From an uncultured Pseudomonadota bacterium (GTDB lineage Bacteria > SAR324 > NAC60-12), in contig CAJWCD010000083.1 in assembly GCA_913020725.1 (NCBI GenBank), forward strand, positions 1-16,879: a stretch of DNA of 16,879 nt, given 5' to 3'. The notes below the pieces were generated by a model. It did no database searches, was not told where the DNA came from, and worked only from the letters and a program-made list of their open reading frames with translations. The position numbers were made by a program, and so were the translations under genes. Below are positions 1 to 13,045 of the stretch, piece by piece (the stretch's first letter is position 1; each line of letters starts with the position of its first letter).

Positions 1-1184
1 AGCGAAGGCATGAGGAAAAAATCAGACCCCGCCTCGATGAGGTGGGCGAGCGGGTCGTTATAGCCGTGAAGCCAGCCCAGCCGTCCGGGATGGCTTGCTG
101 CCAGTCGGTCCAGTGCTTGCCGGAGGTGCTCGTCGCCGCTGCCCAGCAGCAGCACCTGAAACTCAGGAAGCGCAGCGGACGCCAACCACTGCTCCAAGGC
201 CGGAAGCAGGTAGCCAAAACCTTTCTGTTCCGTGAGTCGGCTCACCATGCCAAAAAGCGGCACCTCCGGTTTTTCCGGAAGCCTAAAGCGCTGTTGCAAC
301 GCTGCTTTGCAGGCTCGTTTTCCGGAGCGGTCCTTGAGGGAGTAGTTCGTGGGCAGGTGCGGGTCGGTTTCCGGATTCCAACTCGACTCATCGACACCGT
401 TAAGAATGCCTGCCAAATCCGCCTGCCGACGCTGAAAATGGACGTGCAAGCCATGTCCACCCAGGGGTGTGAGCAATTCCTCCGCGTAACCCGGACTCAC
501 CGCGTTGAGTTTGTCGGCAAGGGCGATTCCGCCCTTGAGCAGATTGAGCTGCCCGTGTTCCTCGAAGACCTCCTGATTCCGGAACTCCGCCGGAATGCCC
601 AGCGCAGCAGCCTGACTCATGGGAGCGTGCCCCTGATACCCGGCGTTGTGCAGGGTCAGCACACTGCGAGTCTTGCGCCAGCGAGCATCTGAGTCACGTC
701 GCTGCCGCAGGTACAGCGCACCGGTGGCGGTGTGCCAGTCGTGCAAGTGCAGGATGTCCGGAATCCAGCCCTGCGCCTCGCACCACGCCAGTCCTGCCGC
801 TGCGAGAAAACCGAATCGGAGAGCGTTGTCGAGGTAGGCACTCCCCCCCTCATCGTAAAAACCCGGACGCTGGAAGAACTCCTGATGCTCCAAGAAATGA
901 AGAGCCACGCTGGCGTCTGCTCCGGAACCTCCGGAAACGAGCGTGGTGCCCCAGACTTTTCCGGCAAGCAGGCGTCCGCCTAGAGACACAGCCAACGTGG
1001 GCTGCACGACCGTGAAATCCTCTTGCCCAGACACGGAGGCGTAGAGCGGAGTGAGGATGCGGACCTCGTGTCCGAGCGCGGCGAGCGCAAGCGGCAGGGC
1101 GTGGCAGACATCGGCGAGTCCGCCTGTTTTTGAGAAACCCGCGACCTCGCTGCACACGAAGGCCACACGCAACGGCTTACTCAA
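1..1184 (-). CDS. glgA: Glycogen synthase (GT5), 3'-partial; runs off the left edge
   Basis: Manual translation of the minus frame absent from the ORF track: TTG at 1184 (AAAGGA upstream, 8-nt overlap with the glgC end), open to base 1. Reads MSKPLRVAFVCSEVAGFSKTGGLADV...PDILHLHDWHT...TLHNAGYQG...GILNGVD...MVSRLTEQKG...IEAGSDFFLMPS. KTGGL, HDWH, SRLxxQKG and MPS are GlgA motifs. Confidence 0.96.
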   Translation of the reverse strand, partial: MSKPLRVAFVCSEVAGFSKTGGLADVCHALPLALAALGHEVRILTPLYASVSGQEDFTVVQPTLAVSLGGRLLAGKVWGTTLVSGGSGADASVALHFLEHQEFFQRPGFYDEGGSAYLDNALRFGFLAAAGLAWCEAQGWIPDILHLHDWHTATGALYLRQRRDSDARWRKTRSVLTLHNAGYQGHAPMSQAAALGIPAEFRNQEVFEEHGQLNLLKGGIALADKLNAVSPGYAEELLTPLGGHGLHVHFQRRQADLAGILNGVDESSWNPETDPHLPTNYSLKDRSGKRACKAALQQRFRLPEKPEVPLFGMVSRLTEQKGFGYLLPALEQWLASAALPEFQVLLLGSGDEHLRQALDRLAASHPGRLGWLHGYNDPLAHLIEAGSDFFLMPS

Positions 1185-2403
1185 CGACGGTTCCTTTGGG
1201 GATCACAACAATTCCACCCTCAGAGACATGGAAGCGTTTCCGGTCTTTTCCCAGATCAAAACCGATCTCCGCTCCGGGCGCGACGCGCACATCTTTGTCG
1301 AGAATCGCCCGCCGGATTTTCGTGCCGCGTCCGATGTCGACACGATCCATGATCACCGATTCCTGCAAGTGACAGAAGCTGTGGACGTGGACACTGTAGC
1401 CAATCACGGACTGCTCCACGAGCGAACCGCTGATGATACTCCCGGAACTGACGATGGAGTTGATGGCATGTCCGGTGCGCAGGTCGCTGAAGTGGACGAA
1501 CTTCGCGGGCGGTAGCGGCGGGTGGTAGGTGTAAACCGGCCAATGCTCATTGTAGAGATTGAACTCCGGGTCGATGCCAACCAAATCCATGCTCGATTCC
1601 CAGTAGGCGTCGAGGGTGCCCACATCACGCCAATAGCCCTTCTCATGCGGCCGCACTCCCGGAATGTGGTTGCGGGCAAAGTCATAGACGAAGACCCTGC
1701 CTTCCGGATACAGCTTCGGGATGATGTCGTGTCCAAAATCGTGATTGCTGTCCTCGCGAGCAGCGTCCGCCCGTAGTTCCCGGACGAGTGTGTCGCACTG
1801 GAAAATGTAGTTGCCCATCGAGGCCAGCACCCGATCCGGATTGCCTGGAATCGTGGGTGGGTTGGACTTGGGTTTTTCGACGAAACCGACCATACGCCAA
1901 TTGTCGTCAACCTCGATGACTCCAAACTGAGCAGCCTCCTCAACGGGCACCGGAATCGCCGCCACGGTCAATTCTGCGCTGTTGCGGTTGTGAAAGCTGA
2001 GCATCTGGCGGATGTCCATGCGGTAAATGTGGTCGCCACCAAACACGCAGACCTGCTCCGGGCGGAGGTCTTCGATGAGGTTCATATTCTGGAAGATCGC
2101 ATCGGCGGTGCCCTCGTACCAACGCTTGCCGGTGCGCATCTGTGCGGGAATGGGATCCACATAGTGATCCAGCACTCCGGACACCCGCCAGCCTTGCCGC
2201 AAGTGTTGCATGAGTGAGTGCGACATGAACTGCGTGAGCACGAAAATCCGGTGCAACCCGGAGTTGACGAAGTTGCTCAGCACAAAGTCGGCGATCCGGT
2301 AATTGCCACCGTAGGGGACAGAGGGCTTGGCCCGCTCATGCGTGAGCGGCGCAAGGCGAGTGCCTTCGCCTCCGGCAAGAATCATGGATAACACTGGAAT
2401 CAT
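1177..2403 (-). CDS. glgC: Glucose-1-phosphate adenylyltransferase (ADP-glucose pyrophosphorylase)
   Basis: ILAGGEGTRLAPLT..RAKPSVPYGG, WYEGTADAI, GGDHIYRMD, FVEKP, ASMGNYIF and YWRDVGT motifs, plus a hexapeptide-repeat C-terminus. AAGGAG RBS 4 nt upstream of the ATG. Coupled to glgA. Confidence 0.97.
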   Translation of the reverse strand: MIPVLSMILAGGEGTRLAPLTHERAKPSVPYGGNYRIADFVLSNFVNSGLHRIFVLTQFMSHSLMQHLRQGWRVSGVLDHYVDPIPAQMRTGKRWYEGTADAIFQNMNLIEDLRPEQVCVFGGDHIYRMDIRQMLSFHNRNSAELTVAAIPVPVEEAAQFGVIEVDDNWRMVGFVEKPKSNPPTIPGNPDRVLASMGNYIFQCDTLVRELRADAAREDSNHDFGHDIIPKLYPEGRVFVYDFARNHIPGVRPHEKGYWRDVGTLDAYWESSMDLVGIDPEFNLYNEHWPVYTYHPPLPPAKFVHFSDLRTGHAINSIVSSGSIISGSLVEQSVIGYSVHVHSFCHLQESVIMDRVDIGRGTKIRRAILDKDVRVAPGAEIGFDLGKDRKRFHVSEGGIVVIPKGTVVE

Positions 2404-2480
2404 GCGGCTCCTTGAGTTGGGACGTGTGATCGGTGGCCGGTTTTTCTGCCTTTTGCCTGCTTTCTAGCTTTGAGCGCATT

Positions 2481-2503
2481 TCGCGGGTATGGCCCGCGCC
2501 TAC
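2481..2503 (-). repeat. GTAG-type REP-like palindrome
   Basis: Minus strand reads GTAG-G-CGCGGG-CCATA-CCCGCG-A: a GTAG tetranucleotide followed by a perfect 6-bp GC stem, the architecture of GTAG-family REPs. Single copy in the window. Confidence 0.5.
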
Positions 2504-2531
2504 GACTCCTGACTCCTGAGTTCTAACTTCT
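2504..2531. repeat. Degenerate heptamer tandem repeat
   Basis: GACTCCT GACTCCT GAGTTCT AACTTCT. Other degenerate 7-mer runs flank it (TTCTGCC TTTTGCC at 2444-2457; GCCTAC/GCCTAA units at 2536-2566). Confidence 0.55.
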
Positions 2532-2629
2532 TTCAGCCTACCACGCCTACCGCCTAAACTCCTAAATCTGTTGTCCACACTCCGGATGTGCTATGCTGGC
2601 ATATCCAGCACGCTTCCTCCGAATTCAAG

Positions 2630-3955
2630 ATGCCTGCGCCCCACCCGATTAAGACACTTGGCCCCTGCCGGGTTGCCTCCCCCCTGCCGCTCAACCGCGA
2701 TCCCAAGGCTCGGGACTTTCGTTTTGTCGAGGACGGCAGCGTGGTTTTGCACAGCGTCCGCGAGGCGCTGGGCACTGCCGAGCCGTCTCCGCCCTTTCAG
2801 ATGGCTGGTCCTTGCGCTGACATTTTCTTCGACCCACCCAAAGTGCATGTGGGCATCGTCACCTGCGGCGGGCTGTGTCCCGGCATCAACAATGTCATCC
2901 GCACGCTGGTGATGCAACTCCACCACAACTACGGGGTGCGCAACATCCACGGCTTCCGCTACGGTTTTCAGGGTTTCATCCCCAAGTACGGACATGAGGT
3001 ACGCAACCTGACCCCGGAATCCGTCAAGAACGCCCACAACCTCGGAGGCAGCATCCTCTCCAGTTCGCGGGGGCCGCAGGAAATCAGCGAAATCGTGGAC
3101 TGCCTCGACCACAACAGCATCCGTGTGCTCTTCGTGATTGGCGGGGACGGCACCCTGCGCGGAGCGCACAGCATCGCTGAGGAGGTCGAGGAACGCGGGC
3201 TCAAAATCGCAGTGGTCGGCATCCCAAAGACGATTGACAACGATATCCCCTTCTGCGTGAAAACCTTTGGTTTCGAGACGGCCTTTTCCAAGGCGATAGA
3301 AGCGGTGCAGTCCGCGCACTCGGAAGCTTATGGCAACCACAACGGCATTGTCATCATCAAGCTGATGGGGCGCGATTCCGGATTCATCGCCGCGAACACC
3401 TCGCTCGCCTGCCCCGATGTCAACTTCGTGTTGGTTCCGGAAGTGCCCTTCACGCTCAAGGGCGAACGCGGGCTGCTGAAATCGCTGGAGCAGGTGATGA
3501 AGAAAAAACGCTTGGAGGGGCGCCATCCGCACTCCGTGATTGTGGTGGCCGAAGGCGTGGGGCAGGACTTGATGGGCAACACGGGCGAAGAGCGCGATGC
3601 CTCCGGAAACGTGCGCTATCGGGACATTGGGGAATTTCTCAAGCACGAGATCAAGCAGCACTTCGCGGAGAGCGATCCGGTCAACGTCAAGGTGATCGAA
3701 CCGAGCTACCTGATCCGCTCGCTGCCCGCCAACGCGCACGACGCGGTGTTCTGCTATTACCTTGCTGACCACGCGGTTCATGCTGGAATGTCCGGAAAGA
3801 CCGACCTGATGATCGGCTACTGGAACGGCCACTTCACGCATGTCCCGCTCGCTCTCGTTGCGCAGCACACCAAGCGCATTGATCCCAACAGCGACTTCTG
3901 GCGGCTCGTGCTCTTTTCCACCGGACAACCCCGCGACATGTGCTCCCCGGAGTAA
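2630..3955 (+). CDS. pfkA: 6-phosphofructokinase, PfkA superfamily group II 'clade X' type, probably ATP-dependent
   Basis: TCGGLCPG, GGDGTLRG, PKTIDND, KLMGRDSGFIA and PSYLIRS motifs. GGDG together with PKTIDND is the signature of trypanosomatid/plant/spirochaete-type ATP-PFKs. ATG 2630 preferred over GTG 2588. Confidence 0.92.
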   Translation: MPAPHPIKTLGPCRVASPLPLNRDPKARDFRFVEDGSVVLHSVREALGTAEPSPPFQMAGPCADIFFDPPKVHVGIVTCGGLCPGINNVIRTLVMQLHHNYGVRNIHGFRYGFQGFIPKYGHEVRNLTPESVKNAHNLGGSILSSSRGPQEISEIVDCLDHNSIRVLFVIGGDGTLRGAHSIAEEVEERGLKIAVVGIPKTIDNDIPFCVKTFGFETAFSKAIEAVQSAHSEAYGNHNGIVIIKLMGRDSGFIAANTSLACPDVNFVLVPEVPFTLKGERGLLKSLEQVMKKKRLEGRHPHSVIVVAEGVGQDLMGNTGEERDASGNVRYRDIGEFLKHEIKQHFAESDPVNVKVIEPSYLIRSLPANAHDAVFCYYLADHAVHAGMSGKTDLMIGYWNGHFTHVPLALVAQHTKRIDPNSDFWRLVLFSTGQPRDMCSPE

Positions 3956-3988: not shown

Positions 3989-5227
3989 ATGCCCATCACC
4001 AGCCATCCTGACGAAGCCCGCACCTTGATTCACTCTGGGGGTGCTGATGCCCTTGACCAGTGGATGTCTGGGTTGGTGAAACAGGAGTTGTTGCCTTTCG
4101 CCATGACCGTGATTGTGCGCCCGGATGGCATCGGTTACTGGCGCTGGTGCGGCTTTGCCAATCCTGCCCAAGGACTTCCCCCTGCTCCGGACACGCTGTT
4201 GCGGGTCTATTCGATGACCAAACCCGTGACGGCGCTGACTGCCCTGCTGCTGGAGGAGCAGGGCTTGCTCGACCTACTGGCTCCAGTGGAAACCTTGATT
4301 CCGGAGTTGGCCAACTGGCGGGCGCTGAACCATCCCACAGCCGAGTTACAGGACTGCACTCTACTGGGATCCGGCCCCACGCTTTTGCAGCTGCTGACGC
4401 ACACCTCCGGGATTTCCTACGGTGCTGCAGAGGGTTCGATTTTGGATCAAGCCCTTGCTCAGCAAATGTCCCGGAACTGTTCGCTTGGGGGATTGCTCGA
4501 AACCTTGTCTGAACTGCCGCTTGTCTTTCCTCCGGGGACAGCGTGGCGTTACGGGTATGGTGTGGATTTGGTGGGTATCGCGCTCATGCGAGCCACAGGG
4601 AAACCCTTGGGGCAAGTCATGGACGAGTTGATTTTCCAGCCCCTCGGCATGGGGGACACCGGATTTGAAGTCCTGAGTTCAGAAGCAGGACGCCTCGCCG
4701 CCCTTTTCCAATCGGAAGTGAATGGGTGTTTAACGGAAATCACGGTGGAGCCACCCCTCGGCCCTCGGGTTGGCGGTTCTCGAGGACGTGCAGAGGGAGA
4801 TCACTGGGGAGGTTCCGGATTGGCGTCAACGCCTGCGGACTGGCTGAAATTTGTGGATCTGCTGCGGGCCGCACACTCCGGAAAAGAAACCGCCATCGCA
4901 CGCCCGGAACTTGTGCGGCGCATGGCCACCAATCAACTTCAGGGCGACATTGCCTCGCTGCTCCCTGAAGGCCCGGCAGGATTCCGGGAGTGGATGCCGT
5001 TTGCAGGGCTTGGGATGGGATGCGGCGTCTGGGTGGTGACGGACACGCAACGACTCGACTGGGAGTCCAATCCGGGTGAGTTCGGCTGGGGCGGCATTGC
5101 CAACACCGTTTTCTGGATCGACCCCGTTGCCGATGCCGCTGTGCTGTTCTTCACCCAAGTGATGCCCTCCAGCCGACTCGGCCTCCGGGACGAGTTGCAC
5201 CAACTTGCCGCCAAATGTCTGCGCTGA
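3989..5227 (+). CDS. Serine hydrolase, beta-lactamase-related (class C/EstB-like esterase-amidase fold)
   Basis: SxxK (YSMTKP), LLTHTSG, PG..WRY and GEFGWGG motifs. No signal peptide evident. Substrate unknown. Confidence 0.88.
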   Translation: MPITSHPDEARTLIHSGGADALDQWMSGLVKQELLPFAMTVIVRPDGIGYWRWCGFANPAQGLPPAPDTLLRVYSMTKPVTALTALLLEEQGLLDLLAPVETLIPELANWRALNHPTAELQDCTLLGSGPTLLQLLTHTSGISYGAAEGSILDQALAQQMSRNCSLGGLLETLSELPLVFPPGTAWRYGYGVDLVGIALMRATGKPLGQVMDELIFQPLGMGDTGFEVLSSEAGRLAALFQSEVNGCLTEITVEPPLGPRVGGSRGRAEGDHWGGSGLASTPADWLKFVDLLRAAHSGKETAIARPELVRRMATNQLQGDIASLLPEGPAGFREWMPFAGLGMGCGVWVVTDTQRLDWESNPGEFGWGGIANTVFWIDPVADAAVLFFTQVMPSSRLGLRDELHQLAAKCLR

Positions 5228-5233
5228 ATCTGC

Positions 5234-6544
5234 TCAAAGTTTGACGGGTTCCAGCCCACACCAGTTGGCAACAAAGAGGGCAATCGTGCCCGTCACCCGT
5301 TGAAGTGACGTGAGGCTGACGCGCTCGTCAAAGGCGTGAATGTCGTGGGAAACAGGCCCGTACACGAGGCAGGGGCAGGCGTCATACAACACGAACACAC
5401 GCCCATCGAGATACCCCGGCGTCACAAAGGATTCCAGACTGGAGCCAAAGCTGGCCGCGTGAGCCTGCCCCAGCACTTGCTCTGCGTCACTGCCCTCTTC
5501 CAGTACATAGCCCCGCGCAAAGAATCCGTTGTACTCGACCTCCGGAGGATTTTCGGAGAGAAAGGCATCGCCCAGGCTTTTTTTCTGTAGGCAGGCTTCG
5601 ATTTCCTGTGCGGCATCACGAGGATCAACTCCGGGATAAATTGCCGCCCGTACATCCAGAGTACACCACGCCGGTACCGACGAAGCCCAGTCACCACCCG
5701 CTATTTTGCCGACGTTGATATTGATGGGATGGTCGAGGTCTGCAAAATACCGATGCTCGGTCCGCCGTCTGTTCCACTCTGCTTCCAATTCCTTGAGTGC
5801 TCCCATCAGCGTGTACGCCGCTGCAATCGCGTTAGAACCGCGCCCCGCTTCGCGTACATGAAAGGGGCGTCCACGCACATGCACCCGGAACCAAATCACT
5901 CCGGCATTGGCCCGCACCAGCATGTTCTCTTCCGGCTCTGGAATGAGAGCCGCCTCCGCACGGTAACCACGCAGCAGTGCAGACAGTGCCCCGTTGCCTG
6001 TACATTCCTCTTCGGTCACGGATTGCACATGCACTTTGGCGGACGGTTGGAAACCCAAACTCCGCAGGGCGTCCAGCGCAAAGACGTTCGCGCAGAGTCC
6101 GGCTTTCATGTCCGCCCCACCGCGTCCGTACAGCCAATCGCCGACTATGTATGGATCAAATGGTGGGCGCGTCCACATCTCCAGTGGTCCCGTGGGCACC
6201 ACGTCAATGTGGCCGTTGAGGATCAGCGAACGCCCTTTGGCCGCGGTGGGATGATGGGTGCCGACGACGTTGAGCGCATTTGTGTAATCGACCTTGACGG
6301 GCGAAAAACCTGGATGGTTCTCAATCTCGGCAACGTCAATCGCCCAGCGGTCCATCTCGTAACCCCGCGTTTTCAGGGCATCGTAGAAGACGTTTTGGGC
6401 GGTGTGTTCCTGTCCTCGCAACGAGGGGTGGCGCATCAAGTCCATCGTGAAGCCGAGTTGGGTCTCAAAGCCCGCGGTCACCGCATCGAGGATTTTTTGG
6501 GAAAGGTCGGCGTTAATCGGCCCGGAGGGAGAGTCGTTTGCCAT
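5234..6544 (-). CDS. M20-family ArgE/DapE-like deacylase (acetylornithine deacetylase-like)
   Basis: Metal-binding motifs LILNGHIDVVP, GRGGADMKAG, TEEE and C-terminal IHAFDE. ATG is 2 nt after the upstream stop. Confidence 0.9.
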   Translation of the reverse strand: MANDSPSGPINADLSQKILDAVTAGFETQLGFTMDLMRHPSLRGQEHTAQNVFYDALKTRGYEMDRWAIDVAEIENHPGFSPVKVDYTNALNVVGTHHPTAAKGRSLILNGHIDVVPTGPLEMWTRPPFDPYIVGDWLYGRGGADMKAGLCANVFALDALRSLGFQPSAKVHVQSVTEEECTGNGALSALLRGYRAEAALIPEPEENMLVRANAGVIWFRVHVRGRPFHVREAGRGSNAIAAAYTLMGALKELEAEWNRRRTEHRYFADLDHPININVGKIAGGDWASSVPAWCTLDVRAAIYPGVDPRDAAQEIEACLQKKSLGDAFLSENPPEVEYNGFFARGYVLEEGSDAEQVLGQAHAASFGSSLESFVTPGYLDGRVFVLYDACPCLVYGPVSHDIHAFDERVSLTSLQRVTGTIALFVANWCGLEPVKL

Positions 6545-6546
6545 GT

Positions 6547-7530
6547 CTAGACAGGATCGCGGGAAAGTGCGTGGGTGGAGCAGGACACGCAGCCGCCCCA
6601 GTAGCTCACATGGTCGTACTCAATCTCGATGGGTTCCACACCCCGTTTAGCGAGTTCGTCACAAACCCTTCCCAAGCCGGAAGGAATGATGTAGCGTTGC
6701 GCGTCCAAGCTCACACCGACTGTGGCAAACGCTGTGGCTTCGGCCTCGCTGAGTTCAATCACATCCCATTCCTTGAGGGGTTCCGGAAGTTCGCACAGCA
6801 GTTCTTCCCGATGCAGTAGGAGCAAGCCTTCCCGGATCAGCACCATGATACCGAGCAGGTGCAGGATGGTGCCCTTCATCGGCATTGGATGCACCTCGTA
6901 GCCCAAGGGCGCAACGGTGTTCCGGAGCCATTCGGTTCCGGCGCGGTTTGTCGCAATCTTCGATTCCCCCACAAAAAGATGATGCTTGTAACACACGATG
7001 TCTCCCCCTTCGAGATAAGGTCCGGGGCCGTCGTGTGAGGGCGAAAACGGCAGGGCAGGCGGCATCACGATATGGCGTGTTTCGGGGTCTGCCGCCAACA
7101 GCGGTGCCACGATTTCCCGCAAGGGAAACACTTCCTTGCGGCGATAGGCACGTCGGAGATTCACCTCAAGGTAGGTCTTGCCTACCGTGAATACTGGATC
7201 CGCCGGATAGAGCAAAGAAGCCCCCGGTTGTAACTCCGCCAAATAGCTGCGCTCTTCTTCGGTGTAGGGACGCGGGCGGTAAACCGTGACTCCGTGTTTT
7301 ACGTAAAGCGTGGCGAGGCTGTCCAACTGCTCGACGGTTTTTTCCCAACGCTCCGGCATGGCGGTGCGAATGTCCAATGGCTGATCGCCACAGGCCTTGA
7401 GCGCCGCCTGCACTTCGTCGTTGTAGTGATGCAAAGACGGGTTGAAGGGCGGCAGGGACAGCCCCTCGGCACTGCCGACAATAGCGGCCCGCAACACTCC
7501 GTAATCGGTGTAGGCTCCAAAAGTAGACAT
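6547..7530 (-). CDS. Amidinotransferase/pentein superfamily protein (glycine amidinotransferase-like scaffold) with atypical active-site motifs
   Basis: N-terminus YTDYGVLRAAIVGSAEGLSLPP resembles glycine amidinotransferases. Also LEGGD, TNRAG..WL, catalytic-His motif LHL and C-terminal GGCVSCST with the nucleophilic Cys. ATG 7530 chosen because the 7587 extension translates an intergenic repeat. Confidence 0.85.
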   Translation of the reverse strand: MSTFGAYTDYGVLRAAIVGSAEGLSLPPFNPSLHHYNDEVQAALKACGDQPLDIRTAMPERWEKTVEQLDSLATLYVKHGVTVYRPRPYTEEERSYLAELQPGASLLYPADPVFTVGKTYLEVNLRRAYRRKEVFPLREIVAPLLAADPETRHIVMPPALPFSPSHDGPGPYLEGGDIVCYKHHLFVGESKIATNRAGTEWLRNTVAPLGYEVHPMPMKGTILHLLGIMVLIREGLLLLHREELLCELPEPLKEWDVIELSEAEATAFATVGVSLDAQRYIIPSGLGRVCDELAKRGVEPIEIEYDHVSYWGGCVSCSTHALSRDPV

Positions 7531-7557
7531 TGTGGTTTGTCGAAAGTTTTTTTTACA

Positions 7558-7612
7558 ACAGAGATGCAGAGGGCACAGAGAAAACAATCCTCAGTGTTCT
7601 CCGTGTCTCTGT
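7558..7612. repeat. Imperfect inverted repeat built from CAGAG units (REP-like)
   Basis: Arms ACAGAGATGCAGAGGGCACAGAG (7558-7580) and CTCAGTGTTCTCCGTGTCTCTGT (7590-7612); 17 of 23 positions are Watson-Crick complementary; 9-nt loop. Confidence 0.7.
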
Positions 7613-7671: not shown

Positions 7672-9279
7672 TCAGCCCATCCACCAACGCTCGGTGTTCT
7701 TGTGACCGTCGAACTCCCAGTTGGAAGCAACATCGGCGGGACGCTTGACGTTGCTGGTGCTGGCGTGTCCGTAAGCGGAGAAGATCGGAATGATCACGCT
7801 GCAATTGTCATGGACGATGCGCTGCATTTCCACATACATTTCGCGGCGTTTGGCATCATCCAACTCCGCCCGTGCTTGCACCAAGAGTTCTTCAAACTTT
7901 GGATGGACGAAGTTGGTTTCCGACCAGCCTGTGGCGATGGCTTTTTCGGAATAGACCTGGCTGAACATCCAGTCCTCTGTGGGACGTCCCCCCCAGTAGG
8001 AGGCCACCCAAGAATCCTTGAGCCAAGTGTTCGACCAGTAGCCATCATTGGGCTTGCGCACGACCTCGATATTGATGCCCGCCCCACGTGCGGTTTCCGC
8101 GAAGAGCACTCCGGCGTCATCCGAATCCTGAAATGCAGTGTCTGCGACCGAGAGCTTCAGATTGATCGAGGGCAGCCCCGCTTTCTTCATGTAATACTTG
8201 GCCATGTCGAGGTCATACTCGCGCTGCGGAATTTCGGAGTCCGAGGCGCGGTAGCGGTTGGCTGGGCCGATCGGGATGTCGTTGCCCAATGCCGCGTGTC
8301 CAAACCAAATCTTGTCCAGCCACTCCTGGCGATTGATAGCACTTTTGAGCGCCATCACCAAGTTGTTGTCGCCAAACGGATCGCGGTCGCTGAGCATCGG
8401 CAGGGTGCAGTGCTGGTTGCCGTTGGTGAAGAAGACCTCGATTCCCGGCTTGCTGCCCAAGCGCCCGGCGGTGCTCAGATTCGGAGCCGTGATCACATCG
8501 AGTTCCCCGGTGACAAGCCCGTTCTCCCGTGCAGTGACGTCGGCAATAAAGAGCGTCTCCACCGAATCGAAATGTGCCCGTCCGGACTTCCAGTAATTGG
8601 CATTGCGCGAAGTCAGGGTGCGCACCCCCGGATCGTAGTTCTCCAGCTTGTAACCCCCGGTGCCAATACCGGACTCCCAGTCAATCGAACCGTCTGCGTT
8701 GGCGGGACAAATGCCAAGGTGGTAATCCGTGAGCAGAAAGGGAAAGTCGGCGTTGGGACCTTCAAGTTTCATGACCACCTTGCTCTTACCGTCGGCTTTG
8801 ATCTCCTTGATTTGCGCGACAATGCCCTTGGCGCCGGACTTGGTTTTCTCGCCCAGATGGTGCTGAATGGACGCGACCACGTCGTTGGCTACCAACGAGC
8901 GGCCATTGTGGAATTCAACGCCCTTGCGCAGATTGAAGACCCAATTCTGACCGTCGGAGGTGTCCCATGACTCGGCGAGTTCCGGAATCAGTTGGTTGTT
9001 CTCGTCAAGCTCGGTGAGGTTGTTGCGCAACTGCCCCATGCCCACATTGATCATGTAAGAATCAAGGAACGTCGCGGGGTCGAGCCGGTCGCTTGTGGAT
9101 CCCCCGGTGAGTGCTTGGCGCAGCGTTCCGCCTCGTTGCGGAGAAGCCGCCAGCACGGAGTCTGACAGAGTTAGCGCCGTTGGCAGGGCAACGCCGACCG
9201 CCAAGGCGGAGCGCACAAAGTCTCTGCGCGAGAGACGGCCTTGGGCCAGTTTTGTTTTCAGAGCGTTGATTTCGTTCAT
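7672..9279 (-). CDS. ABC transporter substrate-binding protein, family 5 (DppA/OppA/NikA-like), Tat-exported
   Basis: Twin-arginine signal LSRRDFV plus hydrophobic stretch, then GGTLR, LDPA, PELAESW, LRKGVEFHNG and GTGGY family-5 motifs. Start at ATG 9279 (or 9288); the extension to 9435 is AT-rich intergenic sequence. Confidence 0.92.
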   Translation of the reverse strand: MNEINALKTKLAQGRLSRRDFVRSALAVGVALPTALTLSDSVLAASPQRGGTLRQALTGGSTSDRLDPATFLDSYMINVGMGQLRNNLTELDENNQLIPELAESWDTSDGQNWVFNLRKGVEFHNGRSLVANDVVASIQHHLGEKTKSGAKGIVAQIKEIKADGKSKVVMKLEGPNADFPFLLTDYHLGICPANADGSIDWESGIGTGGYKLENYDPGVRTLTSRNANYWKSGRAHFDSVETLFIADVTARENGLVTGELDVITAPNLSTAGRLGSKPGIEVFFTNGNQHCTLPMLSDRDPFGDNNLVMALKSAINRQEWLDKIWFGHAALGNDIPIGPANRYRASDSEIPQREYDLDMAKYYMKKAGLPSINLKLSVADTAFQDSDDAGVLFAETARGAGINIEVVRKPNDGYWSNTWLKDSWVASYWGGRPTEDWMFSQVYSEKAIATGWSETNFVHPKFEELLVQARAELDDAKRREMYVEMQRIVHDNCSVIIPIFSAYGHASTSNVKRPADVASNWEFDGHKNTERWWMG

Positions 9280-9364
9280 GGTATCCATTTCGTGGAAAGT
9301 TACAGAAGCATTCTCAAAGGAACACCCTTTTAGACCAAAATCCCAACCAAGAAGCAACCAAAAA

Positions 9365-9392
9365 ATTTTACGAATTCTGGAACAGACTGCAA
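9365..9392 (-). promoter_or_regulatory. Possible sigma70 promoter for the SBP unit
   Basis: Minus strand TTGCAG-N16-TAAAAT in the AT-rich divergent intergenic region. Confidence 0.3.
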
Positions 9393-9477
9393 ATACCTTG
9401 AGAAATAACCATTGGAATGTAAGAACACAAGGCAAGCTCCGACATTGAGGTAAAATCCCTCATTTCGGAAAGTTGAC

Positions 9478-10059
9478 ATGAACTCACAAACCTTTGTGCC
9501 CAAATTCCTGCAACGCCCGTGGCTGGTGTACTTGCTGCTGCTCTTGCCGCAAGTGGCAATCACCCACTCCGGATTGCAATCCGCCGATCCCATTGCTGCC
9601 TTGCTTGACAGCACAGGTTTTTCCGCGTTTCTGCTGATGGCGCTGAGCCTCAGCCTTGCACCGATCCGACACACCCTGCGCCTCAACACGAACTGGCTTC
9701 AGCGGCCCGTTGGGCTGGCACTTTTCAGCTACGGAATGCTGCACGGATGCTGGTACGTTCTCCCCAACGGACTGGAGGACATCGACAAACCCTTCATCTA
9801 CCTCGGTCTCTCCGCGCTCGGACTCTGGAGCTTGTTGGCGCTGACCTCCAACCGTCGTTCGCAGAAAATCCTCAAGCGCAACTGGAAGCGTGTGCATCGC
9901 CTCACTTACCTTGCTACCGTGCTGGTGCTGGTGCATGTTGCGATGAACAACAAAGCAGATCACTACCTCTACATTGCGGGGTTCGCCTTTTGGTTATTCT
10001 GGCAAGTCGCGGGACGAGTGCGGGCCTCTCGAAAAACCCCTGTGCAAGTAGCCGCCTGA
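9478..10059 (+). CDS. MsrQ/YedZ-like heme-binding ferric-reductase-like membrane protein
   Basis: Several TM segments and the motifs QRPVGL..F.Y..LH, LALTSN and WKRVHRLTY......VH, with the conserved heme-ligand histidines. Confidence 0.85.
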   Translation: MNSQTFVPKFLQRPWLVYLLLLLPQVAITHSGLQSADPIAALLDSTGFSAFLLMALSLSLAPIRHTLRLNTNWLQRPVGLALFSYGMLHGCWYVLPNGLEDIDKPFIYLGLSALGLWSLLALTSNRRSQKILKRNWKRVHRLTYLATVLVLVHVAMNNKADHYLYIAGFAFWLFWQVAGRVRASRKTPVQVAA

Positions 10060-10149: not shown

Positions 10150-11316
10150 ATGTACTTCAGCTTGCAAGAATATGAAACCCGCCTCGCCAAAACCCGGCAG
10201 GCAATGGACGCGCAGGGCGTTGAGTTGCTGTTCATCACCGATCCCTCGAACATGTCATGGCTGACTGGCTACGATGGTTGGTCTTTTTATGTCCATCAGG
10301 GGGTGCTGGTGCTTCCGGACGAACCTCCGATTTGGTGGGGTCGGGAAATGGACGTGAACGGGGGCAAGCGCACAGCCTACCTCGACCATGCACGACTGAT
10401 CGGCTATCCGGATCACTACGTCATGTCCACGGAGCGGCACCCGATGGACCACCTCAGCGCCCTCATGCAGGAACGCGGCTGGGGAAATCGTCGCATCGGG
10501 GTGGAAATGGACAACTACTACTTTGCGGCAAAGTGCCTGGAGTCGTTCCGGACGAACCTGCCGGAGGCGGAGTTTCTGGACGCGACAGGACTGGCCAACT
10601 GGCAGCGGGCGGTGAAATCGGCGCAGGAATTGGAGTACATGCGCATCGCCGGGCGCATCGTCACGCGCATGCACGAACGCATCCGGGAGTTCGCCGAGCC
10701 AGGCTTGCGGAAAAACGAGTTGGTGGCGGAAATCTACCGCACCGGAATACAAGGGGTGGACGGCTTCGGGGGTGATTATCCTGCGATTGTTCCGATGCTG
10801 CCTACCGGAGCCGATGCCTCAGCTCCACACCTGACGTGGGACGAGCAGCCGTTGAAATCCGGGGAGGGCACCTTTTTCGAGATTGCGGGCTGCTATCGGC
10901 GTTACCAATGCCCACTCAGCCGAACCCTGTTTTTCGGAACTCCAAACCAAGCGTGGCGGGATGCCGAAAGGGCGTTGCAGGAGAGCATCGAAGCCGGACT
11001 TGCACAAGCGCGTCCCGGTAACAAGTGCGAGGACATCGCCCGCGCCTTCAACGAAACGCTTGCCAAGCACGGACTCAAGAAAGACAGCCGCTGCGGCTAT
11101 CCCATCGGCATCAGCTACCCTCCGGATTGGGGAGAGCGCACCATGAGCCTGCGCTCCGGAGACACCACCGTGCTGGAACCGAACATGACCTTCCACTTCA
11201 TGCCCGGACTCTGGTTCGAGGATTGGGGGATTGAGATCACGGAAAGCATCGCCATCACCGAAGACGAGCCGGAATGCCTCGCCTCGGTGCCGCGAGAGTT
11301 GTTCGTGAAGGGGTAA
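10150..11316 (+). CDS. doeA: Ectoine hydrolase (M24 pita-bread fold)
   Basis: DPSNMSWLTGYDGWSFYVHQ, STERHPMD, GVEMDNYYF, NWQRAVKS, GGDYPAIVP, APHLTW, YPPDWGERTMSLR and FHFMPGLW are characteristic of DoeA/EutD. Confidence 0.92.
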   Translation: MYFSLQEYETRLAKTRQAMDAQGVELLFITDPSNMSWLTGYDGWSFYVHQGVLVLPDEPPIWWGREMDVNGGKRTAYLDHARLIGYPDHYVMSTERHPMDHLSALMQERGWGNRRIGVEMDNYYFAAKCLESFRTNLPEAEFLDATGLANWQRAVKSAQELEYMRIAGRIVTRMHERIREFAEPGLRKNELVAEIYRTGIQGVDGFGGDYPAIVPMLPTGADASAPHLTWDEQPLKSGEGTFFEIAGCYRRYQCPLSRTLFFGTPNQAWRDAERALQESIEAGLAQARPGNKCEDIARAFNETLAKHGLKKDSRCGYPIGISYPPDWGERTMSLRSGDTTVLEPNMTFHFMPGLWFEDWGIEITESIAITEDEPECLASVPRELFVKG

Positions 11317-12438: not shown

Positions 12439-12999
12439 TTACAGCACCGGCTCCTCGTCATCCCAGAACGGCTCCAACTCGACCCCCAGCCCATCGGCGA
12501 GGCGGTTGACGTAGGCGTAGTAGCCTACCACCTGCACGATGTCGAGGATGCCGACATCACTGAATCCAGCAACGCGCAATGCCTCCACATCCGCTGCTTC
12601 CATGTTCCATGGCTCTCGCGTGAGTTTGGCCGCATAGTCCAGCATCACCAAGTCCTGCTTGGAGAGGTCGGCGGTTTTGTAATCTTTGATGAACCGCTTG
12701 ACCCATTCGCCATCGCGAGTGATTTGACGGAGTCCCGCTCCGTGGTGGATGATTCAGTAATGACACTGGTTGACGATGGACACCACCACCGCGATCATCT
12801 CACGTTGTTTGCGCAAGAGGTCTTTGGTGCCCTTCATGGCGGAGTGATAAAGCGCCACATGCCCCTCAAGTGTGGGCAGGTTGATGCTGTGGACGCGCAG
12901 GATGTCGTCCACCCCGCCCCACGGATCCCGCAGTTTGTCGTACCACTCCTTGAGTTCCCCTTTTGCTTCGTCTTCGGGGATCATTGGAACCCAAGCCAT
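12439..12999 (-). CDS. AhpD/CMD-like peroxidase-related protein; probable selenoprotein (Cys79-His-Tyr-Sec82), 186 aa
   Basis: AAAGGAG RBS and ATG at 12999. Track ORFs 12754-13074 and 12439-12651 are in the same frame, separated only by TGA at 12756-12754: ...REMIAVVVSIVNQCHY-U-IIHHGAGLR...YAAKLT...GFSD..ILDI..VVGYYAYVNRLADGLG. TGA occupies the second Cys position of the AhpD CxxC..H motif. Confidence 0.9.
12727..12743 (-). promoter_or_regulatory. Candidate bacterial SECIS element
   Basis: Minus strand ACGGAG-CGGGA-CTCCGT: a perfect 6-bp stem starting 10 nt after the UGA, with the loop beginning 16 nt after it and G at loop position 2. Confidence 0.75.
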
Positions 13000-13045
13000 C
13001 GTTTCTCCTTTGTTTGAGTTTTGAAAAATCTCGTCAGGCCAGCAA

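Follow-up and report, generated by a model that had tools for sequence, protein, structure and literature searches.

We find that the gene on the minus strand at 12999-12439 of the window (the whole 16,879-nt stretch of DNA analyzed here) is very likely intact, with its one in-frame TGA read as selenocysteine (Sec). It is a further, ordinary member of a published and common selenoprotein family. An "AhpD-like protein" with a CXXU motif was first listed in 2005 from 27 sequences, for which a SECIS element was predicted (PMC1088965), and "AhpD-like 1" (COG2128, CxxU), with 299 sequences from 37 samples, ranks fourth by number among the selenoprotein families of the GOS survey (PMC2398784). An initial sequence-only reading of this DNA had noted that such CxxU selenoproteins are reported from marine and deltaproteobacterial selenoproteomes, and its remark that the family is known is borne out. 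The family is also described from sequenced genomes (PMC1794560), serves as the example family of BSepDB (PMC13326102), and is filed in a 2026 review under CxxU with TIGR01926 as its model (PMC13188914). Both SAR324 and selenoprotein are mentioned in PMC5029168, where a table names two SAR324 genomes. The gene shares with this family the TIGR01926 match, the CxxU motif, a downstream SECIS-like hairpin, and a marine source, and no defining difference was found.

One reading frame across an in-frame TGA

Translation of 12999-12439 (minus strand) yields a single frame of 186 codons followed by TAA, with exactly one in-frame TGA, at codon 82 (12756-12754), in the context N-Q-C79-H-Y-U82-I-I-H-H. 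A Shine-Dalgarno-like AGGAG, read directly from the DNA at 13005-13009 (minus strand), lies 5 nt upstream of the ATG. Ordinary open reading frame calling splits the gene in two, with one fragment ending at 12754 and another, of 70 aa, starting at 12651; the proposal that two such frames join into one of 186 aa across a single TGA is confirmed by the translation. GC content by codon position is alike in the two halves (0.63/0.33/0.74 versus 0.67/0.34/0.75).

The read-through protein scored 143 bits against TIGR01926 (cut-off, 81.8; residues 2-174) and tiled the profile without gap or overlap: residues 2-81 cover its positions 1-81, and the half downstream of the TGA covers positions 84-174 of 178. 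It also matched Pfam CMD and, weakly, Pfam PA26. At an E value of 0.001, it had no match to TIGR00777, the model for AhpD proper, and its score of 53.6 bits against NF041238 (AhpD_rel_CFYUT) was below that model's cut-off of 175. NF041238 and NF041537 (ArsM_AhpD_UU) resemble this gene in having an AhpD-type domain with Sec, but the fusion of NF041537 is absent here. With a score above the TIGR01926 cut-off, a TGA at the second Cys of the motif, and a TGA in several independent sequences, the gene belongs to the AhpD-like selenoprotein family.

Among 48 distinct homologous sites (drawn from L001-L067, identical contexts counted once), codon 82 was TGA in 26, a Cys codon in 15, and a Ser codon in 7. 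All 13 distinct sequences of at least 70% identity, this gene included, carry TGA; the close relatives thus keep it, rather than the TGG or TGC that the sequence-only reading had considered. The TGA is retained at 73% protein identity, where synonymous sites are near saturation. The relatives of 73-74% identity that carry a name come from one SAR324 and one deltaproteobacterial record. Relative to the 89%-identical L015, the nearest relative, dN/dS was 0.055 before the TGA and 0.075 after it, so that selection is not relaxed downstream; in more distant pairs, dS was near saturation and the computable dN/dS values ranged from 0.005 to 0.11. The view that both halves are intact therefore holds, since they are consecutive stretches of TIGR01926 and each is under purifying selection. 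In a tree of the 48 sequences, the gene falls in one close clade of 13 sequences, and a CxxS/CxxC clade groups with the Sec clades (support, 95/96), a pattern suggesting at least one change at position 82.

These data bear directly on whether the TGA is a true stop, leaving either a pseudogene or an 81-aa protein plus a C-terminal protein with its own start. In this genome, TGA does function as a stop: it ends 7 of the 13 other genes of the window, and prfB is present. In orthologues L016 and L017, an ATG follows the TGA at once, and 21 of 120 database homologues start at that point. Here, however, the TGA is followed by ATC, and the first in-frame ATG, GTG, or TTG is codon 117; therefore, a restart could not recover residues 83-116, including His86. 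Moreover, constraint on the residues is as strong downstream of the TGA as upstream, the TGA persists across the divergence described above, and in the AlphaFold2 model the break would fall inside the catalytic helix. We consider a true stop extremely improbable.

The 120 database homologues have Cys at position 82 in 49 cases, Trp in 39, Gly in 3, Arg in 3, Leu in 3, and a gap in 23. Together with the Cys found at this column in structure 2pfx, the 49 Cys entries support the claim that the TGA (12754-12756, minus strand) replaces the second Cys of a CxxC motif, while the 21 entries that begin just after it agree with the statement that pipelines often split such genes. The Trp and Gly entries could also indicate that UGA is read as one of these residues, through a changed code or leaky read-through, or that the TGA is a sequencing error. 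However, the database entry for this gene's own protein (P0002) has Gly at 82 although the DNA reads TGA, which shows that a gene caller can place such a letter at a TGA; we infer that the 39 Trp entries have the same origin. The six Trp codons of the gene are all TGG, neighboring genes end in TGA, and among the tRNAs listed by ARAGORN the only one with a TCA anticodon is tRNA-Sec. Regarding a sequencing error, independent contigs hold the identical codon: codon 82 was covered without a listed difference by contigs of all four RNA-library runs (from four studies) and by contigs of three of four DNA runs, the latter possibly being the source of this DNA. A Trp or Gly reading or an error thus has a negligible chance of being correct. 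In P0006, P0014, P0035, P0102, P0108, and P0109, which show Arg or Leu in place of Sec, the residue could reflect an error or a single-base change of TGA, or these could be genuine CxxX variants.

The sequencing runs in which the sequence occurs are marine and, with the named relatives above, make a SAR324-type host probable. The RNA-library contigs were set aside as evidence of expression; they partly cover the neighboring genes too, and neither transcription nor its strand or level can be read from contigs.

Selenocysteine decoding and the predicted SECIS hairpin

The genome, which is 93% complete, encodes selA (531 bits), selB (388 bits), and selD (363 bits), all above curated cut-offs, as well as a tRNA-Sec (66.3 bits; cut-off, 47; Rfam RF01852). 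The selD gene has an in-frame TGA of its own, in the motif CGU. The expectation that this organism decodes Sec is therefore well founded, and UGA codon 82 is almost certainly recoded as Sec. In the mechanism that we propose, with the same near certainty, SelB carrying Sec-tRNA would bind a hairpin whose loop lies 16 nt past the UGA and would out-compete release factor 2. In the prfB gene (G000:C119, about 4850-4960, plus strand), one frame ends E-G-Y-L-TGA and the continuation is in another frame, which we take to be the usual programmed +1 frameshift of release factor 2. Across 88 genomes searched, selA was found in 73 and selB in 77, and each of the 16 genomes that have a TGA copy (E value, 1e-30 or better) carries both. 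As a test of decoding, this co-occurrence discriminates little and was set aside as uninformative because almost all 88 genomes carry selA/selB.

The predicted SECIS element is a hairpin at 12743-12727 (minus strand), ACGGAG-CGGGA-CTCCGT, with a 6-bp stem and a 5-nt loop. The bacterial SECIS model given in PMC13188914 (Fig. 2A) has a loop of 3-9 nt, a stem of 4-16 bp, a G in the first two loop positions, and a spacing of 16-37 nt from the UGA, with an energy of -7.5 kcal/mol or lower. The loop CGGGA starts 16 nt after the TGA and has G at its second position, and the hairpin thus agrees with the loop, stem, G, and spacing rules. Its energy is borderline, at -7.9 kcal/mol with flanking bases and -7.3 kcal/mol bare. 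Over the 42 nt from the TGA, the stability of this sequence alone was within chance (z = -0.38), and 311 of 2,000 synonymous recodings of the same peptide gave an equally good hairpin; stability as a stand-alone proof was consequently dropped. However, only 130 of the 3,848 sense codons of the window genes have an equally good hairpin behind them. No Rfam family matched in the window at gathering scores.

The support for the hairpin instead comes from its conservation across TGA-bearing homologues. Within the SECIS geometry, a hairpin of -7.5 kcal/mol or lower follows 10 of 26 TGA codons and none of 22 Cys/Ser codons, and at -5 kcal/mol or lower the counts are 18 of 26 versus 5 of 22, although the relatives counted are not independent. 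Several orthologues have weaker hairpins (-2.7 to -4.4 kcal/mol). The codons of G87 and A88 do not vary among the 13 orthologues, whereas at the 34 other invariant codons of fourfold or greater degeneracy an average of 0.59 of pairs differ, and only 1 of the 34 shows no variation. When 23 of the 26 TGA sequences were aligned (the remaining three, whose hairpin comes later, were excluded), the stem cells in the 22 distinct sequences of this register were paired in 93.9% of cases, versus 37-42% when the stem was slid. Covariation was not significant, with a two-sided change in one of six pairs and 161 of 500 shuffles scoring as high; the stem is therefore conserved but not proven by compensatory change. 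Thus, of the SECIS-like hairpin claimed by the sequence-only reading, the 6-bp stem, the loop, and the spacing stand, and the stem is conserved, whereas its stability alone does not set it apart from chance.

Predicted fold, catalytic residues, and possible chemistry

An AlphaFold2 model (built with Cys at 82 from 76 sequences) is all-helical, with a mean pLDDT of 95.6, and its predicted helices 63-76 and 80-94 form a two-helix catalytic hairpin. The best structural matches were 2pfx, 3c1l, 6k40 (D. radiodurans), 2prr, and 2oyo (Foldseek TM, 0.87-0.89; Z, 23-24; 25-33% identity); these share the whole-length fold and the Glu/Cys/Tyr/Cys/His spacing, but have Cys rather than Sec at the second position. 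Lower matches were streptococcal AhpD (Z, 20), Bmp8 (Z, 18.5), PA0269 (Z, 18), the N-terminal domain of Sestrin2 (Z, 12-14), and M. tuberculosis AhpD (Z, about 11). Bmp8 and Sestrin2 belong to the same fold family at 13-18% identity, and Sestrin2 differs in keeping only the first Cys (PMC4674687). M. tuberculosis AhpD (TIGR00777) and PA0269 resemble this protein in the two-helix catalytic hairpin and the proton-relay spacing (PMC3141380). The mycobacterial protein differs in that its motif is C-terminal, it has His in place of Tyr81, and it sits with ahpC; here, none of the genome's seven AhpC-TSA matches is on this contig, and the window has no peroxiredoxin gene.

Glu67, Cys79, Tyr81, Sec82, and His86 are spaced as Glu36, Cys48, Tyr50, Cys51, and His55 in PA0269 (PMC3141380), and Glu67, Cys79, Tyr81, and His86 are nearly invariant among homologues. 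Glu67 (12799-12801), equivalent to the proton-relay Glu of AhpD, is Glu in all 98 homologues with a residue there; Cys79 (12763-12765), the first Cys of the CxxU motif, is Cys in 95 of 97 with a residue at that column; and the proton-relay His equivalent, His86 (12742-12744; all minus strand), is His in 116 of 120, its codon overlapping the start of the hairpin. The protein is thus predicted to have an AhpD-like all-helical fold, with the five residues on the two-helix hairpin, and it is highly probable that it is a Sec-containing CxxU oxidoreductase.

By analogy with these relatives, a role as a Cys79/Sec82 peroxide-defense reductase is somewhat favored. The chemistry, proposed as a whole with the same modest preference, would run as follows: (i) Sec82 would be the reactive center, owing to its low pKa and to a relay formed by Glu67 and His86; (ii) Sec82 would reduce an organic hydroperoxide or an oxidized peroxiredoxin; (iii) Cys79 would pair with Sec82 as a selenenylsulfide; and (iv) the enzyme would be reset by a dithiol donor, for which a lipoyl protein, the donor described for AhpD (PMC8945050), is the probable candidate. 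Loss of DR_1765 is reported to cause H2O2 sensitivity in a manner dependent on both Cys residues (PMC8945050), and PA0269 is described as a weak Cys-dependent peroxidase in PMC3141380. Against this order of steps, Sestrin2, as noted above, works with the first Cys only, Cys130 is called essential in PMC3141380, and a CxxS clade lies among the Sec clades; hence Cys79, and not Sec82, may be the attacking residue. In mycobacterial AhpD, the second Cys is said, from work by Koshkin in 2003, to be activated by a His/Glu relay. In the literature searched, with subscription journals outside its scope, we found no assay of a Sec-containing family member.

An alternative is that the same selenoprotein uses C79 and U82 to reduce a different small electrophile. 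A halogenated aromatic would be one example, on the model of Bmp8, a debrominase of the AhpD fold. Selenium-dependent deiodinases offer a parallel for the reduction of halogenated aromatics. The protein shares the fold of Bmp8 (VIA Z, 18.5; rmsd, 3.1 Å over 178 residues; 13% identity; profile E value, 6e-7), which is described as a dehalogenase in PMC7918430, and the peroxidase rates measured in Cys relatives are reported to be low (PMC3141380). In addition, the genome has four AhpD-like paralogues with differing motifs (CxxU twice, CxxS, and CxxC), which suggests different substrates. However, the five closest structures are the peroxidase-related group, well above Bmp8, and no halogen-metabolism gene was recognized among the 11 window neighbors scanned. 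We regard reduction of such another electrophile as unlikely. Its broadest form, by analogy with the thyroid enzymes, would make the marine CxxU family a selenium-dependent reductive dehalogenase acting on marine organohalogens, an AhpD-fold counterpart of the thyroid deiodinases, rather than a peroxide scavenger; this form, founded on fold kinship with Bmp8, seems a very long shot. If it were true, bromine or iodine would be stripped from marine organohalogens, with the four paralogues acting on different substrates.

Genomic context and other candidate selenoproteins

Upstream of the AhpD-like gene are a methyltransferase gene and an EamA transporter gene, and a serine hydrolase gene starts right after its TAA. 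The methyltransferase and serine hydrolase genes accompany it only within the species and in relatives of 89% identity (L011 and L015); the neighbors are not conserved in loci at 72-78% identity or beyond the genus. The neighborhood was therefore dropped as a clue to the substrate, and no shared pathway is inferred from it. A promoter scan returned two sites, with 1.9 expected, and none before the AhpD-like gene.

Elsewhere in the window, an ectoine hydrolase gene, doeA, at 10150-11316 (plus strand) exceeds the TIGR02993 cut-off and lies near genes for an ArgE/DapE-like deacylase (5234-6544), an amidinotransferase-like protein (6547-7587), and an ABC binding protein (7672-9435); together, these possibly serve osmolyte or amine scavenging. 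An MsrQ-like ferric-reductase membrane protein at 9478-10059 (plus strand) scores below cut-off, and no msrP was recognized beside it. From sequence motifs, we take positions 1-3955 to hold glycogen synthase-like, ADP-glucose pyrophosphorylase-like, and phosphofructokinase-like open reading frames. An open-ended frame at the contig end (16645-16879, plus strand) has no Pfam match and presumably resembles the start of an IS256-type transposase.

Of the paralogues in this genome (G000), the second CxxU gene (L008; G000:C34:10568-11167, minus strand) is 44% identical to the gene studied here and scores 134 bits against TIGR01926; its hairpin differs, having 7 bp and a loop that starts 24 nt after the TGA. 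The CxxS paralogue (G000:C72:5859-6395, minus strand) falls in the clade grouped with the Sec clades, and the CxxC paralogue (G000:C93:3236-3811, plus strand) lies about 1.7 kb downstream of selD. In other genomes, L042 (G026:C214) and L047 (G041:C498) each contain two TGA-bearing AhpD-like genes in tandem, with a separate hairpin for each gene.

Further candidate selenoprotein genes encode a SelW-like protein (G000:C5:47294-47515), a Trx-like UxxC protein with only a weak family match (G000:C6:11024-11464), two PrdB-like proteins below cut-off (G000:C35:4844-5662 and C100:3134-4138), a UGSC-family protein (G000:C175:3313-3852), a TxxU peroxiredoxin (G000:C60:14404-14781), and SelD (G000:C93:489-1412). 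A motif-plus-hairpin screen reduced 22,117 TGA read-through frames to 145 rows, mostly noise, from which five new candidates were chosen by eye and checked against NCBIfam; therefore, the list of selenoproteins is incomplete.

The substrate question is no more testable through this gene than through the hundreds of published family members. What changes is the annotation, in that gene callers split this AhpD-like gene or place Trp or Gly at its active site, and the picture of the organism, a marine bacterium, probably of the SAR324 type, with a selenium pathway and at least nine candidate selenoprotein genes.
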